The notes: generated by a model not told the origin, from the letters alone. Counted from the stretch's first letter, positions 5,085 through 43,204 are shown. The stretch is 59,861 nucleotides of DNA from Candidatus Giovannonibacteria bacterium (GCA_030699445.1 JAUYMO010000023.1:1-59861), one strand, 5' to 3'. Numbers and translations are program-made.

Positions 5085-6167
5085 ATGGTCGGGAAACAAA
5101 AAATAACCGGACCGGCGTTTTTTATCGGAAAAGAAGGCGACGGATTAATTTCTTTCGGCTCGGGACAGCCCGACCTCCCGCCGCCCAAAGAAATTTTCAA
5201 GGGCTTGGAAAATCCCCGCCTTTTTAAATACGGGCTGATTCAAGGCGACAAAAAATTAAGAGAAGCTCTCGCTGGAGAATATCCAAAAGCTAAAGCAGGA
5301 AATTTTGTGATTACCAACGGCGCCTCGGAAGCTTTGGATTTGGCCATGCGTGTTTTGGCAAAAATGCCCGGCCAAAACAAAATCCTACTTTGCCGACCTT
5401 ATTACTATTCTTATCCGCCAATCGTAGAATTCGCCGGGCTCCAGCCAATTTACACCCAATTAAAAAACGGCCTGATTGATTTGGATGATTTCAAGAAAAA
5501 AATCAAAAAAGTAAAAGCTGTTTTAATCAACTCCCCATCCAATCCCACCGGCCGTGTGGAAACAATGGAAACTCTAAAAGCCATTGAGCGAATCACGAAA
5601 AAACTCGGCGTTTGGGTTATTTCCGACGAAGTTTACAAAGATTTAATTTACGGGCGCGAAAATTATCTGATAAAAGGCCGGCATGTGATCACCATAAATT
5701 CTTTTTCAAAAACCTACGCAATGTGCGGGTTGAGAGTCGGCTACCTTTATTCTCCGGACAGGGAATTTGTCCAAAAAATCACGGATATGAAAGTGCATAC
5801 TTCAATGAACACCAATTCCATGGGTCAGGCAATGGCGCTTTCCGCGATGCGCGCCCCGCGGAGTTATGTTAAAAATCAAGTCGCGATTTGGGAAAAAAGG
5901 CGCGACCTTATTTACGGCGGGCTTATAAAGCTCGGGTTTGATTTGTGGAAACCGGAAGGCGCTTTTTATGTGCTTCCAAAAATAAAAAATACCGAGAGCG
6001 CCTTGGGCGAGCTTTATTACAAATATAAAGTGATTGTTTACAACGGCGCCTGGTTCGGCGCGCCCGGAAGAATCCGGCTTTCCTACGCGCTGGATGAAAA
6101 GAAAATAGAAGAAGGCCTCCGGCGCATCAAAAAATTTTTAAAAGGAAAAGAGAGCTGGCTCAAATAA
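5085..6167 (+). CDS. class I/II PLP-dependent aminotransferase
   Basis: Aspartate-aminotransferase-like fold signature: NGASEAL, NSPSNPTG, SDEVY, and SFSKTYAMCGLRVGY carrying the PLP lysine. Confidence 0.85.
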   Translation: MVGKQKITGPAFFIGKEGDGLISFGSGQPDLPPPKEIFKGLENPRLFKYGLIQGDKKLREALAGEYPKAKAGNFVITNGASEALDLAMRVLAKMPGQNKILLCRPYYYSYPPIVEFAGLQPIYTQLKNGLIDLDDFKKKIKKVKAVLINSPSNPTGRVETMETLKAIERITKKLGVWVISDEVYKDLIYGRENYLIKGRHVITINSFSKTYAMCGLRVGYLYSPDREFVQKITDMKVHTSMNTNSMGQAMALSAMRAPRSYVKNQVAIWEKRRDLIYGGLIKLGFDLWKPEGAFYVLPKIKNTESALGELYYKYKVIVYNGAWFGAPGRIRLSYALDEKKIEEGLRRIKKFLKGKESWLK

Positions 6168-7572: not shown

Positions 7573-7836
7573 ATGGCATTTGTTTATATATTAAAAAGTT
7601 TGCGAGATGCCAGGTTCTATATCGGCAGTACTACAAATTTGCAAGAAAGATTGAAACATCATTTTGGGGGATTCACTCCCAGTACAAAGAGTTTTGGAAA
7701 AATAGAACTTGTTTTTTCTCAAAAATATCCTAATTTGAAAGATGCCCGTTCTATAGAAAGAAAACTTAAAGCTTTGAAAAGAAAGGATTATCTTGAGAAA
7801 ATAATAAAAGACGGGAAAATCAACACGCGCCCATAG
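7573..7836 (+). CDS. GIY-YIG nuclease family protein (87 aa)
   Basis: FVYILKS...FYIGSTTNLQERLKHH matches the GIY-YIG/URI motif. The stop codon lies inside the first 10 nt of tRNA-Val. Confidence 0.8.
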   Translation: MAFVYILKSLRDARFYIGSTTNLQERLKHHFGGFTPSTKSFGKIELVFSQKYPNLKDARSIERKLKALKRKDYLEKIIKDGKINTRP

Positions 7837-10908: not shown

Positions 10909-11072
10909 ATAAAATCATTGTTATATTTCTAAAAATCAATTATTCTTTAGATATTTACTCCGTAAGTTCTGAATTTATGCCACTAAATCCGCATGCCGGT
11001 AGGATCGCCGCTGAAGGCCGCGAAATGGGTTAGAACTATTTTTAAAATAGTGCACAAAAAAATAAAATATAC

Positions 11073-11185: not shown

Positions 11186-11428
11186 ATGAGAAGCAAAAAA
11201 GACCGCGAACTGGAGCTCAACCAAAACACGATAACTCTCGCGAATTTTATGGAATCTTACAACAAGAGCGTTCCTTTGGATTTTCCGAAAGTGTCGGCGA
11301 AAATATTGAAAGAATTTCAGGTATTGCATCCGGCGCTTTTTAAGCGCGGCGACGAATGGTCAATAGACAAGCACAGAAAAAAGCTGATGGATTGGCTCCC
11401 CTCCTACGCCGATTCCAAAATTTCTTAA
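11186..11428 (+). CDS. hypothetical protein (80 aa)
   Basis: ORF only. No motif recognised. Confidence 0.4.
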   Translation: MRSKKDRELELNQNTITLANFMESYNKSVPLDFPKVSAKILKEFQVLHPALFKRGDEWSIDKHRKKLMDWLPSYADSKIS

Positions 11429-17084: not shown

Positions 17085-17155
17085 TGCGGGATACCGGAAT
17101 CGAACCGGTGCCAAGAGTTTGGAAAACTCCTATTCTGCCATTAAACTAATCCCGC
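17085..17155 (-). tRNA. tRNA-Gly (anticodon TCC)
   Basis: The reverse complement folds: acceptor GCGGGAT / ATCCCGC, anticodon loop TTTCCAA, T-loop TTCGATT. No encoded CCA. Confidence 0.88.
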
Positions 17156-17203
17156 CTACGCCGGGCTTCGGCGGGCAAGCCCGCCAACTTTTTTGATTCT
17201 ATA

Positions 17204-18039: not shown

Positions 18040-18171
18040 CGGCTTTTTCCTTTTTTTCTTTTTTCTCTTTTTTTCTTTTTTCTTGCTTTTAAGTTTGCAA
18101 TTCGTATAGTTATTCATAAAAGCCTCCCTCCTGTTAAAGAGATAGCATGACAATATATAAAAAACAACTTG

Positions 18172-18242
18172 TCGGGCTGCTGGGAATCGAACCCAGTCTC
18201 TCTGCTCCCAAAGCAGATGTACTGCCACCATACTCCAGCCCG
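18172..18242 (-). tRNA. tRNA-Pro (anticodon TGG)
   Basis: Acceptor CGGGCTG / CAGCCCG, anticodon loop TTTGGGA, T-loop TTCGATT. No encoded CCA. Confidence 0.88.
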
Positions 18243-18266
18243 CCTTCGGCGGGTAAACCCACTTCT

Positions 18267-20305: not shown

Positions 20306-20331
20306 ACCAGCACCCCCGCTGGTCTTTTTTT
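20306..20331. terminator. hairpin terminator
   Basis: ACCAGC-loop-GCTGGT followed by a T-run, between two convergent genes. Confidence 0.6.
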
Positions 20332-20470
20332 ATAAAATATCCAAAATCTTTTCACGGAGACCATCAAATCCGCGACAGGACATTATGACGATGACATCGC
20401 CAGATCTCGCCTCCCGTTTCACATGAAACAGAAACCGTATGTTTCCCGTGAAACACTTCGTCTTACCTAA
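20330..20470 (-). pseudogene. mpl: C-terminal segment of the mpl-like ligase, in the +1 frame
   Basis: It translates to ...ARSGDVIVIMSCRGFDGLREKILDIL, matching the Mpl C-terminus (GD.ILVMSNGGFGGI..KLLD.L in E. coli Mpl as I recall it). The frame differs from 20463-21623. Confidence 0.6.
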
Positions 20471-21623
20471 GCGAGCCGGTTTTATACGGCTTATAAAGAT
20501 AAACAATGTCGGCATGCCGAAACGCCTTGATGTATTGTTTCTCAAAGATACGGTGCTTGGACGAGGCAGAACCCGGCTCAAACATAAGAAATAGTCGTCG
20601 CCGCGCTTTCACGCCTTTTGCGTGAAACTTTGTTTTAAGCATAATTAATGTTTCACGGACGGCAGTAGGATGGTGAGCATAGTCGTCAATCACGGTTATC
20701 CCATTTTTCTCACCAATAATCTCGGACCGCCTTTTCACTCCTTTAAAGCTGGCTATGGCTTTTTTGATTGTTTCATGTGAAACGCCAACGAATCTTGCTA
20801 CGGCAATAGCCGCTTGAGTATTTTTGGCCATATAGTCGCCGTGTTTAAGCCCAAACAGTTTCATGCCTGCCCGCCGAAGCTTTAGCGTAGGCGGGTGAAA
20901 CTTATTCACCAATTCCATCACATTTTTGTCATAGCGGTTGGCAACTAAAAGGCCGTTATTCGGTATCAGATTTATGAAACGCGCGAAAGCGTATTTATAG
21001 GCCTCGAGATCCTTATATATATCCACGTGGTCGAGCTCAATGTTGTTTACCACCCCTATAAATGGGCGATAATGCCAAAACTTAGGACTTTTATCAAAAA
21101 AAGCCGTGTCATATTCATCGCCCTCTAAAACAATGTATTCGCCCTTGCCGAGTTTAAAAGTGCCATTAAAGTTTCCCGTGAACCCGCCGACAAACACGGT
21201 TGGGTCCAAACCGGCGCATTCCAAAATCCAGGCGATTAGTGCGGTGGTAGTCGTTTTGCCATGCGTGCCGGAAATTACAATGGCTTTCTTTCCAAAAATA
21301 AACTCATCTAAAAGTATATCGGACATTGACCGATATCCGCCAACTGGCGGATGTCCGTTAGAAAGCACGTGCTCCAATTCCGGATTGCCCCGGCCAATAG
21401 TATTACCAACAATTACCACATCCGGCTTCCAATGTTTCATGTGAAACGCCGAATATGGCGTGAAAACCTTGATTTTCAATTTTTCCAGCATACTTTTCAT
21501 CGGCTCATACATTTCCTGGTCCGAGCCGGCAACTTCGTAGCCCTTCCTTTTTAAAAGCCCCGCCAAGCTTGCCATTGCCACTCCGGCAATGCCGATTAAA
21601 TAGTAACGTTTCCCCTTTATCAT
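20463..21623 (-). CDS. mpl: Mur ligase family, UDP-N-acetylmuramate:tripeptide ligase (Mpl)-like, ends prematurely
   Basis: GIAGVAMASLAGLL, GNTIGRGNPE, GTHGKTTTTA, EGDEYDTAFFDKSPKFWHY and NNIELDHVDIY. The stop follows ...CUU AGG UAA and the reading continues in the +1 frame. Confidence 0.8.
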   Translation of the reverse strand: MIKGKRYYLIGIAGVAMASLAGLLKRKGYEVAGSDQEMYEPMKSMLEKLKIKVFTPYSAFHMKHWKPDVVIVGNTIGRGNPELEHVLSNGHPPVGGYRSMSDILLDEFIFGKKAIVISGTHGKTTTTALIAWILECAGLDPTVFVGGFTGNFNGTFKLGKGEYIVLEGDEYDTAFFDKSPKFWHYRPFIGVVNNIELDHVDIYKDLEAYKYAFARFINLIPNNGLLVANRYDKNVMELVNKFHPPTLKLRRAGMKLFGLKHGDYMAKNTQAAIAVARFVGVSHETIKKAIASFKGVKRRSEIIGEKNGITVIDDYAHHPTAVRETLIMLKTKFHAKGVKARRRLFLMFEPGSASSKHRIFEKQYIKAFRHADIVYLYKPYKTGSLR

Positions 21624-22373: not shown

Positions 22374-22386
22374 TTACAAAGTCCTG

Positions 22387-22566
22387 TCGGGGTGTCCCGC
22401 TAAGCGGGATCTTCGCGCACCCTTGCCCCGTTAGAAAATTTACTTTCGGAGAGCCGAGAATCGAACTCGGGCCTTACGCACCCGAAACGTATGTACTACC
22501 ACTATACTACTCTCCGATGATTTTCTAACGGGGCGAACGCGCGTACTGCCGGTATACTACACCCCG
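22387..22566 (-). pseudogene. tRNA-Pro-like gene split in its anticodon loop by an insert that contains tRNA-Pro(CGG)
   Basis: 5' half is CGGGGTG-TA-GTAT-ACCGGCA-GTAC-G-CGCGT-TCG. 3' half is GGGT-GCGCG-AAGA-TCCCGC-TTA-GCGGGA-CACCCCG-A. Acceptor and anticodon stems pair, but the T-loop is only 3 nt. Confidence 0.5.
22446..22516 (-). tRNA. tRNA-Pro (anticodon CGG)
   Basis: Acceptor CGGAGAG / CTCTCCG, anticodon loop TTCGGGT, T-loop TTCGATT. It is flanked by the 14-bp inverted repeat CCCCGTTAGAAAAT / ATTTTCTAACGGGG. Confidence 0.88.
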
Positions 22567-41815: not shown

Positions 41816-43204
41816 ATGATATTGAAAAATAAAAAAATAATAATAGCGATTTTAATAACTCTAACGTTGTTTCCGCCAACATTTTTGGCGCCGAAAGCCA
41901 AGGCCTTAATAGTGCACGACCCCATACACACTGCCGTGAACCTTTCTTATTGGACTTTGGACTGGACAAAAGAGTTTGCTTTAGACAAAATCGGTTGGTA
42001 TATAGCCAAGCTTATGGTGCACGAAATTTCTCAATCCATTGTCCAATGGATCAGAACAGGTGGGCAGGGAGGCTCTCCACTTTTTGTCCGAGATTGGGAA
42101 GGATTTTTGTTAAACATTGCGGATAAAGCTGGCGGAAAAGTGCTTGAGCAATTAAAACTTACCGCGCTTTGCGAGCCCTTCGCGCTAAAGCTTCGGCTGG
42201 CTTTTGGCGTAGGCCGCAGTCCGATTCAGGAAAGGTTGCGATGCACAATTTCAGGCGTAGTTGGAAATTTGAATAATTTTTATAATGATTTTTCGCAAGG
42301 AGGCTGGCAAAGATGGATTGAAATAACCCAAACGCCGGCCAATAACCCTTATATGGCTTATTTCATCGCGCTTGATGCTAGACAAATGGCAGAAGCTTCA
42401 GCGGTAAACTCCGGCCGCAATGAAGCAATAGCGGCAGGAGGATTTTTGAGCCTTAAAAAATGCACCGTAACTCCGACTACTTTTTCGGTCACGGACGACG
42501 ACACCGGAGAAGAAAGCGAAGTTTCTTTTGATAAAGAAGATTGCCAAAACACAACGCCCGGAGCAATCGTAAACGACCAGCTTAAAAAAGTTTTCGGTTC
42601 GGAAATAGACCAGTTGAATATAGCCGATGAATTAAACGAGGTTTTGCTCGCCGCTGTGCAGCAATTAATACACACAATGCTTTTCTCCGCGGGCGGAGTT
42701 TATGAATCGGACGTCGCATCTTCCTACAAGGCGGCGGAAACAGACATTCAAAATCTTTCTGGCACGATAGAAAAAGTTTTGAAAATAGAAACAGAAATTT
42801 CCAGAGCCGAAATTATTTTAAATAAAACCGAGCGGGCGCTTTTTGCGACGCAGGATGAAATTATAGTTCTAACAAAACTCAAGGCGTGCCAAATCAATAA
42901 AAACGACAGCATATCCACCACCAATTCCAAAATAGCGTCTGCAAGTTCAACGGCGGAAATGCTTGAGACGAAAGTTAAAGAGCAAAAAGACCTGGTCGCG
43001 CTGATTAAAAACGACCGCGACAGAATCAGAAACGCTAAAAATGTATTGGAAATTGACCAGGCCTATCAAGACGCGACTTTTGATATAAGCAAAATCAGCG
43101 TACTGGAAGTAGCTCAAGCCGATTTTGACACGGCTTTGGAAAAGAAAACTCAAGCCGAAGACGATTTAGCCGTTTGCTTAAATCCTCCGGTAGTAAATCC
43201 ATGA
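41816..43204 (+). CDS. secreted protein with a C-terminal coiled coil (T4SS-like locus)
   Basis: Signal peptide MILKNKKIIIAILITLTLFPPTFLAPKAKA, with heptad-rich sequence in the last third of the protein. The ORF track extends to 41771, but 41816 fits a signal peptide. Confidence 0.55.
   Translation: MILKNKKIIIAILITLTLFPPTFLAPKAKALIVHDPIHTAVNLSYWTLDWTKEFALDKIGWYIAKLMVHEISQSIVQWIRTGGQGGSPLFVRDWEGFLLNIADKAGGKVLEQLKLTALCEPFALKLRLAFGVGRSPIQERLRCTISGVVGNLNNFYNDFSQGGWQRWIEITQTPANNPYMAYFIALDARQMAEASAVNSGRNEAIAAGGFLSLKKCTVTPTTFSVTDDDTGEESEVSFDKEDCQNTTPGAIVNDQLKKVFGSEIDQLNIADELNEVLLAAVQQLIHTMLFSAGGVYESDVASSYKAAETDIQNLSGTIEKVLKIETEISRAEIILNKTERALFATQDEIIVLTKLKACQINKNDSISTTNSKIASASSTAEMLETKVKEQKDLVALIKNDRDRIRNAKNVLEIDQAYQDATFDISKISVLEVAQADFDTALEKKTQAEDDLAVCLNPPVVNP

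Follow-up and report, generated by a model that had tools for sequence, protein, structure and literature searches.

Rickettsia palindromic elements (RPEs) are palindromic, gene-less sequences that lie in frame in unrelated housekeeping genes and are translated as extra loop residues (PMC10969869). This report concerns a 30-nt palindromic element identified in contig C42 of a Candidatus Giovannonibacteria genome (GCA_030699445.1, JAUYMO010000023.1:1-59861; 59,861 nt, the whole of which is referred to below as the window), where one copy lies inside a gene resembling mpl and related hairpins overlap the 5' ends of two tRNA genes. The host genome, labelled G000 in a comparison set of 20 genomes of its family, belongs to a lineage of the Candidate Phyla Radiation (CPR) and comprises 658 kb in 58 contigs, with 44% GC and 46 tRNA genes. 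RPEs occur also in RNA genes. Like RPEs, the 30-nt element is found in frame in pth, the Mpl-like gene, mnmA and an ATPase gene. RPEs differ in their size (approximately 100-150 bp), their restriction to Rickettsia and their conserved peptide, this comparison being one of features rather than of sequence homology. In contrast, the 30-nt element is read in three frames, crosses phyla, has a CPR host and regenerates tRNA 5' ends.

A second group of relevant repeats consists of the repetitive extragenic palindromes and bacterial interspersed mosaic elements (REP/BIME), which are associated with Y1 HUH transposases (REP-associated tyrosine transposases, RAYTs). Like these, the 30-nt element is a short imperfect GC palindrome with a 4-nt tag and no target duplication, it occurs occasionally in pairs, and Y1 genes are present in the genome. 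It differs in that its tag is not GTAG, in that it is mostly intragenic, low in copy number and not species-specific, and in that no RAYT gene is flanked by it. According to PMC4478555, the GC clusters of fungal mitochondria are tiny GC hairpins that merge, nest and move between species, and some of them lie beside tRNA genes in Neurospora. These clusters (such as yeast GC42 and the Neurospora PstI palindromes) resemble the 30-nt element in being tiny, sporadic, mobile-looking and nested GC hairpins in an AT-richer genome, whereas the 30-nt element is bacterial, is unrelated in sequence, lies in frame in genes and shows no duplication. Elhai et al. reportedly described, in 2008, small dispersed repeats (SDRs) of heterocystous cyanobacteria, which are 21-27-nt palindromic units found nested and in both genes and spacers. 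The SDRs differ from the 30-nt element in sequence and host range, and we know of no report of tRNA-end regeneration by them. A MITE of the DDE type is also a poor match, since the 30-nt element lacks a target-site duplication at pth and mpl. Finally, the 20/21-nt GC palindromes of the same genome are similar in that they form exact in-frame units, and a 21-mer is nested in the 30-nt copy of contig C25; the 30-nt element is nonetheless a distinct family, being asymmetric (with an internal loop and a tail) and present in one to four canonical copies per genome.

By size, host, tag, location, and transposase or duplication, the 30-nt element thus falls outside the RPE, GC-cluster and REP families. 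In the searchable literature, neither sequence or peptide strings nor topic yielded a name for it. Among annotated plasmid records there were only weak partial matches, in no feature or "hypothetical protein", and phage records gave no match. What is new here is the 30-nt family, together with the layout of displaced 5' ends described below for tRNA-Gly and tRNA-Pro.

Structure and insertion of the 30-nt unit

In the window, the element occupies positions 20866-20895 on the minus strand, within a Mur ligase gene (20463-21623, minus strand) whose best match is mpl (TIGR01081, 311 bits, below the cut-off), followed by murC (also below the cut-off). The hairpin spans 20870-20895 and is followed by a 4-nt tail at 20866-20869 (CAGG on the coding strand); the unit is read as PPTLKLRRAG. 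An earlier note on this DNA had correctly translated this segment and a second palindrome in the gene (PPTLKLRRAG, within HPPTLKLRRAG, and HPPVGGY), and every sequence that it quoted is present where it had been placed; the tail was missed, and the unit is 30 nt in length. Its layout is CCCGCC-TWC-GC-TAAA-GC-TTC-GGCGGG-CARG, in which the 4-nt tail follows a 26-nt hairpin whose 6-bp GC stem encloses a 14-nt centre, folded as a 3x3 internal loop, a 2-bp inner stem and a 4-nt loop.

We consider it likely that the mpl hairpin is one copy of a gene-less insertion element that enters DNA as an exact 30-nt unit. A 25/26 copy of the mpl element is found in pth (peptidyl-tRNA hydrolase) on contig C5, in the same orientation with respect to the coding strand and in a different frame (read PAFAKASAG). 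When pth was aligned among 16 genomes, exactly 30 extra nt (10 codons) were present in G000 only and the gene was uninterrupted in the 15 relatives; in G001, a member of the same genus with 86% amino-acid identity, pth reads straight through the site. No target-site duplication was found at either the pth or the mpl site, and what looks like a repeat at tRNA-Gly is due to the match between the start of the tRNA and an arm of the element itself.

The same unit limits are seen in 126 public copies, which have the tail CAAG, CAGG or TAAA (not GTAG) and unconserved flanks. The outer pair of the stem covaries among these copies (T-A in 52, C-G in 47 and other in 27), and copies in the host family keep complementary arms such as TCCTCC/GGAGGA, CCCTCC/GGAGGG and CACTCC/GGAGTG. 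Genic copies use three of the six frames, specifically the three without stop codons. A target-site rule was considered and rejected: flanks are unconserved, and an arm-like word that stands beside the insert at the tRNA cases and pth is missing at mpl and RNase P. Terminator features were not found at the mpl, pth, mnmA and RNase P copies, which are gene-internal and have no T-run, and Rfam models run around the copies matched only RNase P RNA and tRNAs.

Copies in the host genome

In addition to the mpl and pth copies, G000 carries one in a P-type ATPase gene (read PASAKATAG) and one in mnmA, in the opposite orientation, in which both arms have changed (CCCTCC/GGAGGG; read PSEALAEEG). Another copy, with an enlarged centre, forms a 45-nt expansion of one hairpin tip of the RNase P RNA (RF00010, 151.7 bits), and an intergenic copy on contig C25 has its centre split by a 21-nt CCTGCC palindrome. 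At 42165-42200 on the plus strand of the window is a degenerate copy with an intact 16-nt core and decayed arms, in a 481-aa protein of a type IV secretion locus (..PFALKLRLA..). In total, at least five G000 copies lie within open reading frames (ORFs) and one within RNase P RNA, and many host-family copies are also found in ORFs. With the tRNA-side copies at 17151-17179 and 18239-18257 (see below), they support the earlier proposal that a single repeat family occurs both in pre-tRNA leaders and in coding genes. As a unit of 30 nt adds 10 codons and has three open frames out of six, copies persist in protein surface loops; they also persist at the tips of RNase P RNA helices, within other palindromes and in intergenic DNA. 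Survival is confined to places that tolerate 30 in-frame nt or a longer helix. A canonical 30-nt element is also found in the RNase P RNA of G014 (L223, contig C2, approximately 1196-1225), in a helix different from that of G000. It seems that the peripheral helices of RNase P RNA have received insertions repeatedly.

Hairpins of this type are enriched in both the window and the genome. CCCGCC-N3-25-GGCGGG occurs four times in the window against 0.24 expected from shuffles, a count reached in 0 of 100 shuffles. In the 658-kb genome, CCCGCC...GGCGGG occurs 23 times against approximately 4 expected (approximately 6-fold enrichment), while the reverse arrangement GGCGGG..CCCGCC is not enriched genome-wide (5 against approximately 4 expected). 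A census of all 6-bp hairpins showed the same one-sided bias for several GC stems (CCTGCC 50 against 0, TCCGCC 22 against 0 and CCCGCC 15 against 2), from which it follows that G000 holds several families of tiny palindromes.

Other repeats of the genome were noted alongside these. The ACCCCGTTAGAAA word and its complement are present in 26-31 copies, including window positions 22380-22445 and 22518-22545 on both sides of tRNA-Pro(cgg). Further palindrome families are GGAAGTCSGACTTCC (approximately 20 copies), AACACYSRGTGTT (approximately 18) and CCCCTTMSKAAGGGG (approximately 8). Double TCCGCC hairpins, read as SAKGGPA(L/S)GG, occur in two unrelated proteins (C3 12009 and C40 6702).

The mpl-like gene and its palindromes

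Alignment of mpl orthologues, which the earlier note had proposed as a check, identifies both mpl palindromes as insertions. The 30-nt element is kept at the same site in three relatives (G016, G002 and G010), is missing from 12 other family members and is absent in other genera. In G016, the outer pair has changed from C-G to T-A with respect to G000, a compensatory stem change, while G002 and G010 have the same arms as G000 and a longer centre. The element is bordered by the two halves (GTTTCA and CATGAAAC) of a 14-bp palindrome (20858-20901, minus strand). As removal of the 30 nt restores GTTTCACATGAAAC, the mpl element landed inside another palindrome.

The second mpl palindrome (TCCGCC-AACT-GGCGGA, read HPPVGGY; 21335-21352, minus strand) is real and belongs to a separate small family of 16-nt palindromes with TCCGCC stems. 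It is a net insertion of 12 nt in G000 only; G002, G010 and G016 read GH-L-YRSM at this position. A 21-nt palindrome occupies the exact same spot in G019 (locus L006). Thirty bases further in mpl, relatives carry either TCCGCC-AGCT-GGCGGA or the doubly changed TCTGCC-AGCT-GGCAGA at a site that is empty in G000. The VFY..MLGGG loop of MnmA is a similar insertion hot spot, and in relatives these loops of Mpl and MnmA hold a 21-nt palindrome.

Two other features of this gene were observed. First, in the region corresponding to window positions 20330-21623, the mpl-like ligases of G000, G002, G010 and G016 lack approximately 45 residues of other family members, including ..LIG.YN.SN... Second, the G000 ligase stops early with its remainder in another frame, and its best NCBIfam scores are below cut-off. 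The G000 mpl-like gene may be decaying or repurposed.

Spread beyond the host genome and possible mode of movement

Public sequences were searched with the 24-nt core of the element with one free position (23 specified bases), a census that gives a lower bound and from which approximately 124-126 copies were analyzed. Against an estimated 0.03 chance matches, at least 120 genome stretches carry the core, and they represent no fewer than eight phylum-level groups. According to record titles, these include Bradyrhizobium and other Alphaproteobacteria, Gammaproteobacteria, Bacteroidota, Planctomycetota, Acidobacteriota, Omnitrophota, Methylomirabilota, Desulfuromonadales and many CPR lineages, with cultured isolates among them, and the core is also present in five IMG/VR contigs. 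In the host family, 18 core copies were found in 10 of the 20 genomes, at one to four per genome, while a reversed control pattern was found 0 times. Only the mpl copy is shared; the sequence context of the others differs from copy to copy.

Several local arrangements of public copies were observed. Tandem direct copies with a 31-39-nt period are found at L128, L151 and L190 (at L128, three in a row beside a tRNA 3' end), and L210 has a close inverted pair. A sister element with the same arms and tail, and with the centre GCCAAGGC rather than GCTAAAGC, is found at L207 (approximately 5850-5880); the Alphaproteobacterial loci L094, L100, L104, L183 and L197 were noted alongside it. In many high-GC genomes, the word ..CGGCGAAGCCTTGGCG.. 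recurs approximately 25 nt from the canonical copy. A larger "master" element was considered and rejected: in flank-to-flank blastn comparisons, common flanks were found only among related Alphaproteobacteria, where the copy lies within another local repeat.

We propose that the element would move as a folded single strand, to be recognized by a nuclease or transposase that acts in trans and is encoded elsewhere. Stem pairing would be required for the mobilization step, which would explain why the arms covary. Candidate mobilizers in G000 are of two kinds, namely the Y1 (RAYT/IS200-like) genes, of which there are seven, and the nine mini GIY-YIG genes that adjoin tRNAs.

A number of observations weigh against a mobile gene-less element of this kind. 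First, no recurrent partner gene was identified in an all-against-all comparison of ORFs within 1.5 kb of approximately 125 public copies; the recurrent "proteins" near these copies are the element's own translations, together with a mini GIY-YIG gene at three loci. Second, none of the seven Y1_Tnp genes of G000 lies beside a copy, and a link to the two RAYT-like genes of the window was rejected because their hairpins are private and unrelated. Third, copy number is low, with one to four canonical copies per genome, and some copies (mpl and mnmA) are old, so that activity may be rare. Fourth, a 24-mer that is nearly identical from phylum to phylum is not readily explained when the element has no gene of its own. 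Fifth, covariation of the arms could result from templated quasi-palindrome repair instead of selection. Finally, in the set of nine tRNA-side insertions described below, the copies at L102 and L144 share extra upstream bases, and the nine cases therefore need not all be independent.

Alternatively, the element could be an ordinary REP spread by a RAYT-like transposase of G000, in the manner proposed for REP/BIME elements. The 4-nt single-stranded tag beside a 26-nt imperfect palindrome, the lack of target-site duplication, the seven Y1_Tnp genes and the close inverted or tandem public pairs (L210, L128 and L151) are all consistent with this explanation. The tag, however, is CARG/CYTG instead of GTAG, most G000 copies are intragenic, and no Y1 gene is flanked by the element, the RAYT-like genes of the window having private hairpins instead. 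In addition, REPs are normally species-specific and present in high copy number, whereas the 30-nt element is low-copy and identical across phyla. We therefore regard an ordinary REP as unlikely and continue to favour a separate insertion element.

Hairpins at the 5' ends of tRNA-Gly and tRNA-Pro

The window genes for tRNA-Gly(tcc) (17085-17155) and tRNA-Pro(tgg) (18171-18242) are both on the minus strand, so the plus-strand hairpins beside them cover the first tRNA nucleotides and the 5' leader. As had been noticed earlier, the hairpin at 17151-17175 contains nt 1-5 of tRNA-Gly and leader sequence, and that at 18239-18253 contains nt 1-4 of tRNA-Pro and leader sequence. At tRNA-Gly, the insert is a 29-nt copy with a variant centre (17151-17179, minus strand), of which the arm at 17151-17155 is tRNA nt 1-5. 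Its likeness to the mpl element is real, although the 22 of 26 matches counted previously should read 23 identities, in blocks of 11 and 12 nt with the centres TAAA and CGG. At tRNA-Pro, the insert is a short-form hairpin with the same arms, a 3-nt loop and a TAAA tail (18239-18257, minus strand), which overlaps tRNA nt 1-4.

The order of segments on the tRNA strand at tRNA-Gly is leader, GGCGGG, CTTG, CCCGCC, 13-nt centre, GGCGGG, ATTAG and the rest of the tRNA. As deletion of 29 nt leaves an intact tRNA-Gly start, the element lies between nt 5 and 6 and its last arm provides the new nt 1-5, while the displaced old 5' end (GGCGGG on the tRNA strand) remains at 17180-17185 on the minus strand. 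The short-form equivalent at tRNA-Pro lies between nt 4 and the next nucleotide and has a decayed upstream copy: GTGGG on the tRNA strand (18258-18262, minus strand), one change from GCGGG, is probably the displaced old tRNA-Pro 5' end. Because the last arm, GGCGGG, equals the start of these tRNAs, the tRNA gene is regenerated. At both genes, the old first bases would have been pushed into the leader, where they would pair with the left arm of the element.

Leaders are plain at the tRNA-Gly genes of G007 and G019 (99% identical), G016 and G006 (87-99% identical across the four). The tRNA-Pro leader of G016 is also plain, and the homologous leader in G002 and G010 lacks approximately 20 hairpin-bearing bases. 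In G008, tRNA-Gly has a related insert with another centre, again directly preceded by GCGGG.

The pairing between leader and acceptor strand that had been noted previously might mean that these hairpins are functional parts of pre-tRNA leaders that control RNase P cleavage or tRNA folding, with the mpl copy as a stray relative. The complementarity is real, the same layout is found at tRNA-Gly and tRNA-Pro across several CPR lineages, and the pre-tRNA-Pro hairpin is predicted to compete with the acceptor stem (pair probability of 0.79 against 0.15). There is also a precedent in Neurospora mitochondria, where a role as processing signals was at one time suggested for GC-rich palindromes beside tRNA genes (Yin et al. 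1981, cited by PMC4478555). A census of hairpins at tRNA 5' ends gives a number above the 0.06 expected (P ~0.002), but they are present at only 2 of the 46 G000 tRNA genes, and close relatives have the same tRNA genes without them. The 30-nt unit is also found in protein loops and RNase P RNA, where a leader role does not apply. The predicted fold of pre-tRNA-Gly retains the cloverleaf with a separate leader hairpin, the acceptor pairs having a probability of approximately 0.89 against 0.011 for leader-acceptor pairing. In this prediction, the displaced GGCGGG folds with the CUUG tail and CCCGCC into a hairpin of its own, which leaves the cloverleaf intact. This decoy hairpin (GGCGGG-CUUG-CCCGCC, 17170-17185), made up of the displaced tRNA-Gly 5' bases, the tail and the left arm, is terminator-like on the plus strand, the sole such case among the copies examined. 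The prediction for pre-tRNA-Pro is ambiguous, as the alternatives are within 1 kcal/mol of each other and the model gives no cloverleaf in any case. Given the relatives without leader hairpins and the predicted normal fold of pre-tRNA-Gly, a processing role is unlikely. As judged from sequence comparison, the tRNA leader hairpins are better explained as scars, left when the terminal arm of an inserted element took the place of the first bases of the tRNA.

Public copies are also found at tRNA genes. Eighteen of 124 are within 60 nt of a tRNA, and 14 of 124 (approximately 11%) are within 6 nt of a tRNA end against approximately 0.7 expected (P ~3e-14, using a null that is biased in favour of tRNAs). 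In nine cases, the order is old GCGGG, tail, left arm, centre and a right arm that forms tRNA nt 1-5: tRNA-Gly and tRNA-Pro of the window, tRNA-Gly of G008, four CPR tRNA-Gly genes, a further tRNA-Gly carried by an IMG/VR contig, and a CPR tRNA-Pro(tgg). In all six of the public cases (five genomic and one from a viral-catalogue contig), GCGGG is found just upstream of the tail. In the other tRNA-side public copies, either the tail abuts tRNA nt 1 or the copy is at, or overlaps, the tRNA 3' end.

Two further tRNA-Gly loci were noted. A second, different tRNA-Gly(tcc) is located on a 5.4-kb contig of G000 (C36, 2832-2902); it may be a paralogue, may have been carried in by an element or may be a contaminant from binning. 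In G012 (L036/L042, contig C5, approximately 42681-42715), a 35-nt 5' half of a GCGGGATTAG-type tRNA-Gly has the appearance of a scar from integration; it lies just upstream of an intact tRNA-Gly(tcc) of another type.

Mini GIY-YIG genes and tRNA targeting

The nine mini GIY-YIG genes of G000 (frames of approximately 80-150 aa) are located at C53 11046-11252, C13 28490-28699, C25 13321-13533, C19 2992-3192, C17 3172-3372, C10 7525-7722, C43 9607-9810, C23 492-707 and window positions 7576-7785. At least seven of the nine stand immediately 5' of a tRNA, and in most of these a leftover tRNA 5' fragment and one or two GC hairpins come before the gene. On C53, for example, a tRNA-Asn 5' fragment (approximately 10985-11045) has a 20-nt palindrome, CCTGCCTGCC-GGCAGGCAGG, after the D-arm, and an intact tRNA-Asn follows at 11297. 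This locus was considered as an interrupted working tRNA and rejected, as the palindrome is in the leftover fragment upstream of the GIY-YIG gene and the intact tRNA-Asn.

These cassettes follow the same logic as the insert at tRNA-Gly (old part, insert, regenerated tRNA) on a larger scale. The tRNA-side copies might therefore be remnants or satellites of GIY-YIG cassettes, with the hairpin as a cassette junction and the in-gene copies secondary. In agreement with this, three of the hairpins beside GIY-YIG genes have CCCGCC/GGCGGG arms (C10 7741, C19 2956 and C25 13560), and a mini GIY-YIG gene lies within 1.5 kb of a public copy at three loci. However, the window has no such gene where tRNA-Gly and tRNA-Pro carry their inserts, the copies in pth, mpl, mnmA and RNase P RNA are remote from tRNAs, and 122 of approximately 125 public copies have no such gene nearby. 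An origin from GIY-YIG cassettes is thus as improbable as a leader function.

A more specific form of the insertion-element hypothesis is that the element actively targets the ends of tRNA acceptor stems, either nt 5/6 of tRNA-Gly and tRNA-Pro or the exact 5' or 3' boundary of the mature tRNA, and that its arm then heals the gene. Movement would depend on a tRNA-directed activity, such as a mini GIY-YIG nuclease linked to tRNAs or an RNA-level route exploiting the element's resemblance to a tRNA minihelix with a 4-nt 3' tail. We regard such targeting as possible but doubtful. If true, a tRNA-targeting element would represent a new type of minimal mobile DNA that homes to tRNAs, and would act as a vehicle of transfer between phyla.

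A chance or local origin, in which unrelated GC palindromes arise by fold-back or quasi-palindrome mutation or are terminators, can be dismissed: short GC stems form easily and some CCCGCC...GGCGGG hairpins are plain terminators (e.g. contig C10 at 12346), but this origin is already contradicted by the 25/26 copy in pth, by the identical 24-mer in at least 120 unrelated stretches against approximately 0.03 expected and by the reversed control (0 against 18), and the tail is conserved beyond the palindrome.

Significance of the 30-nt element

The 30-nt element is a well-delimited case among the smallest bacterial mobile DNAs, with no gene, no target duplication, filled and empty sites, nesting and covarying stems. 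It exposes two problems, namely the cross-phylum identity of a gene-less element and its precise placement at tRNA ends. Self-healing insertion would explain the odd leader hairpins, the tolerant tRNAs being those that start with GCGGG or CGGG. Old copies are retained in essential genes of a reduced genome. The inserts inflate loops of CPR proteins and of RNase P RNA, where they can mislead alignment, annotation and the inference of RNA structure, and they serve as markers for recent genome change in unculturable organisms.

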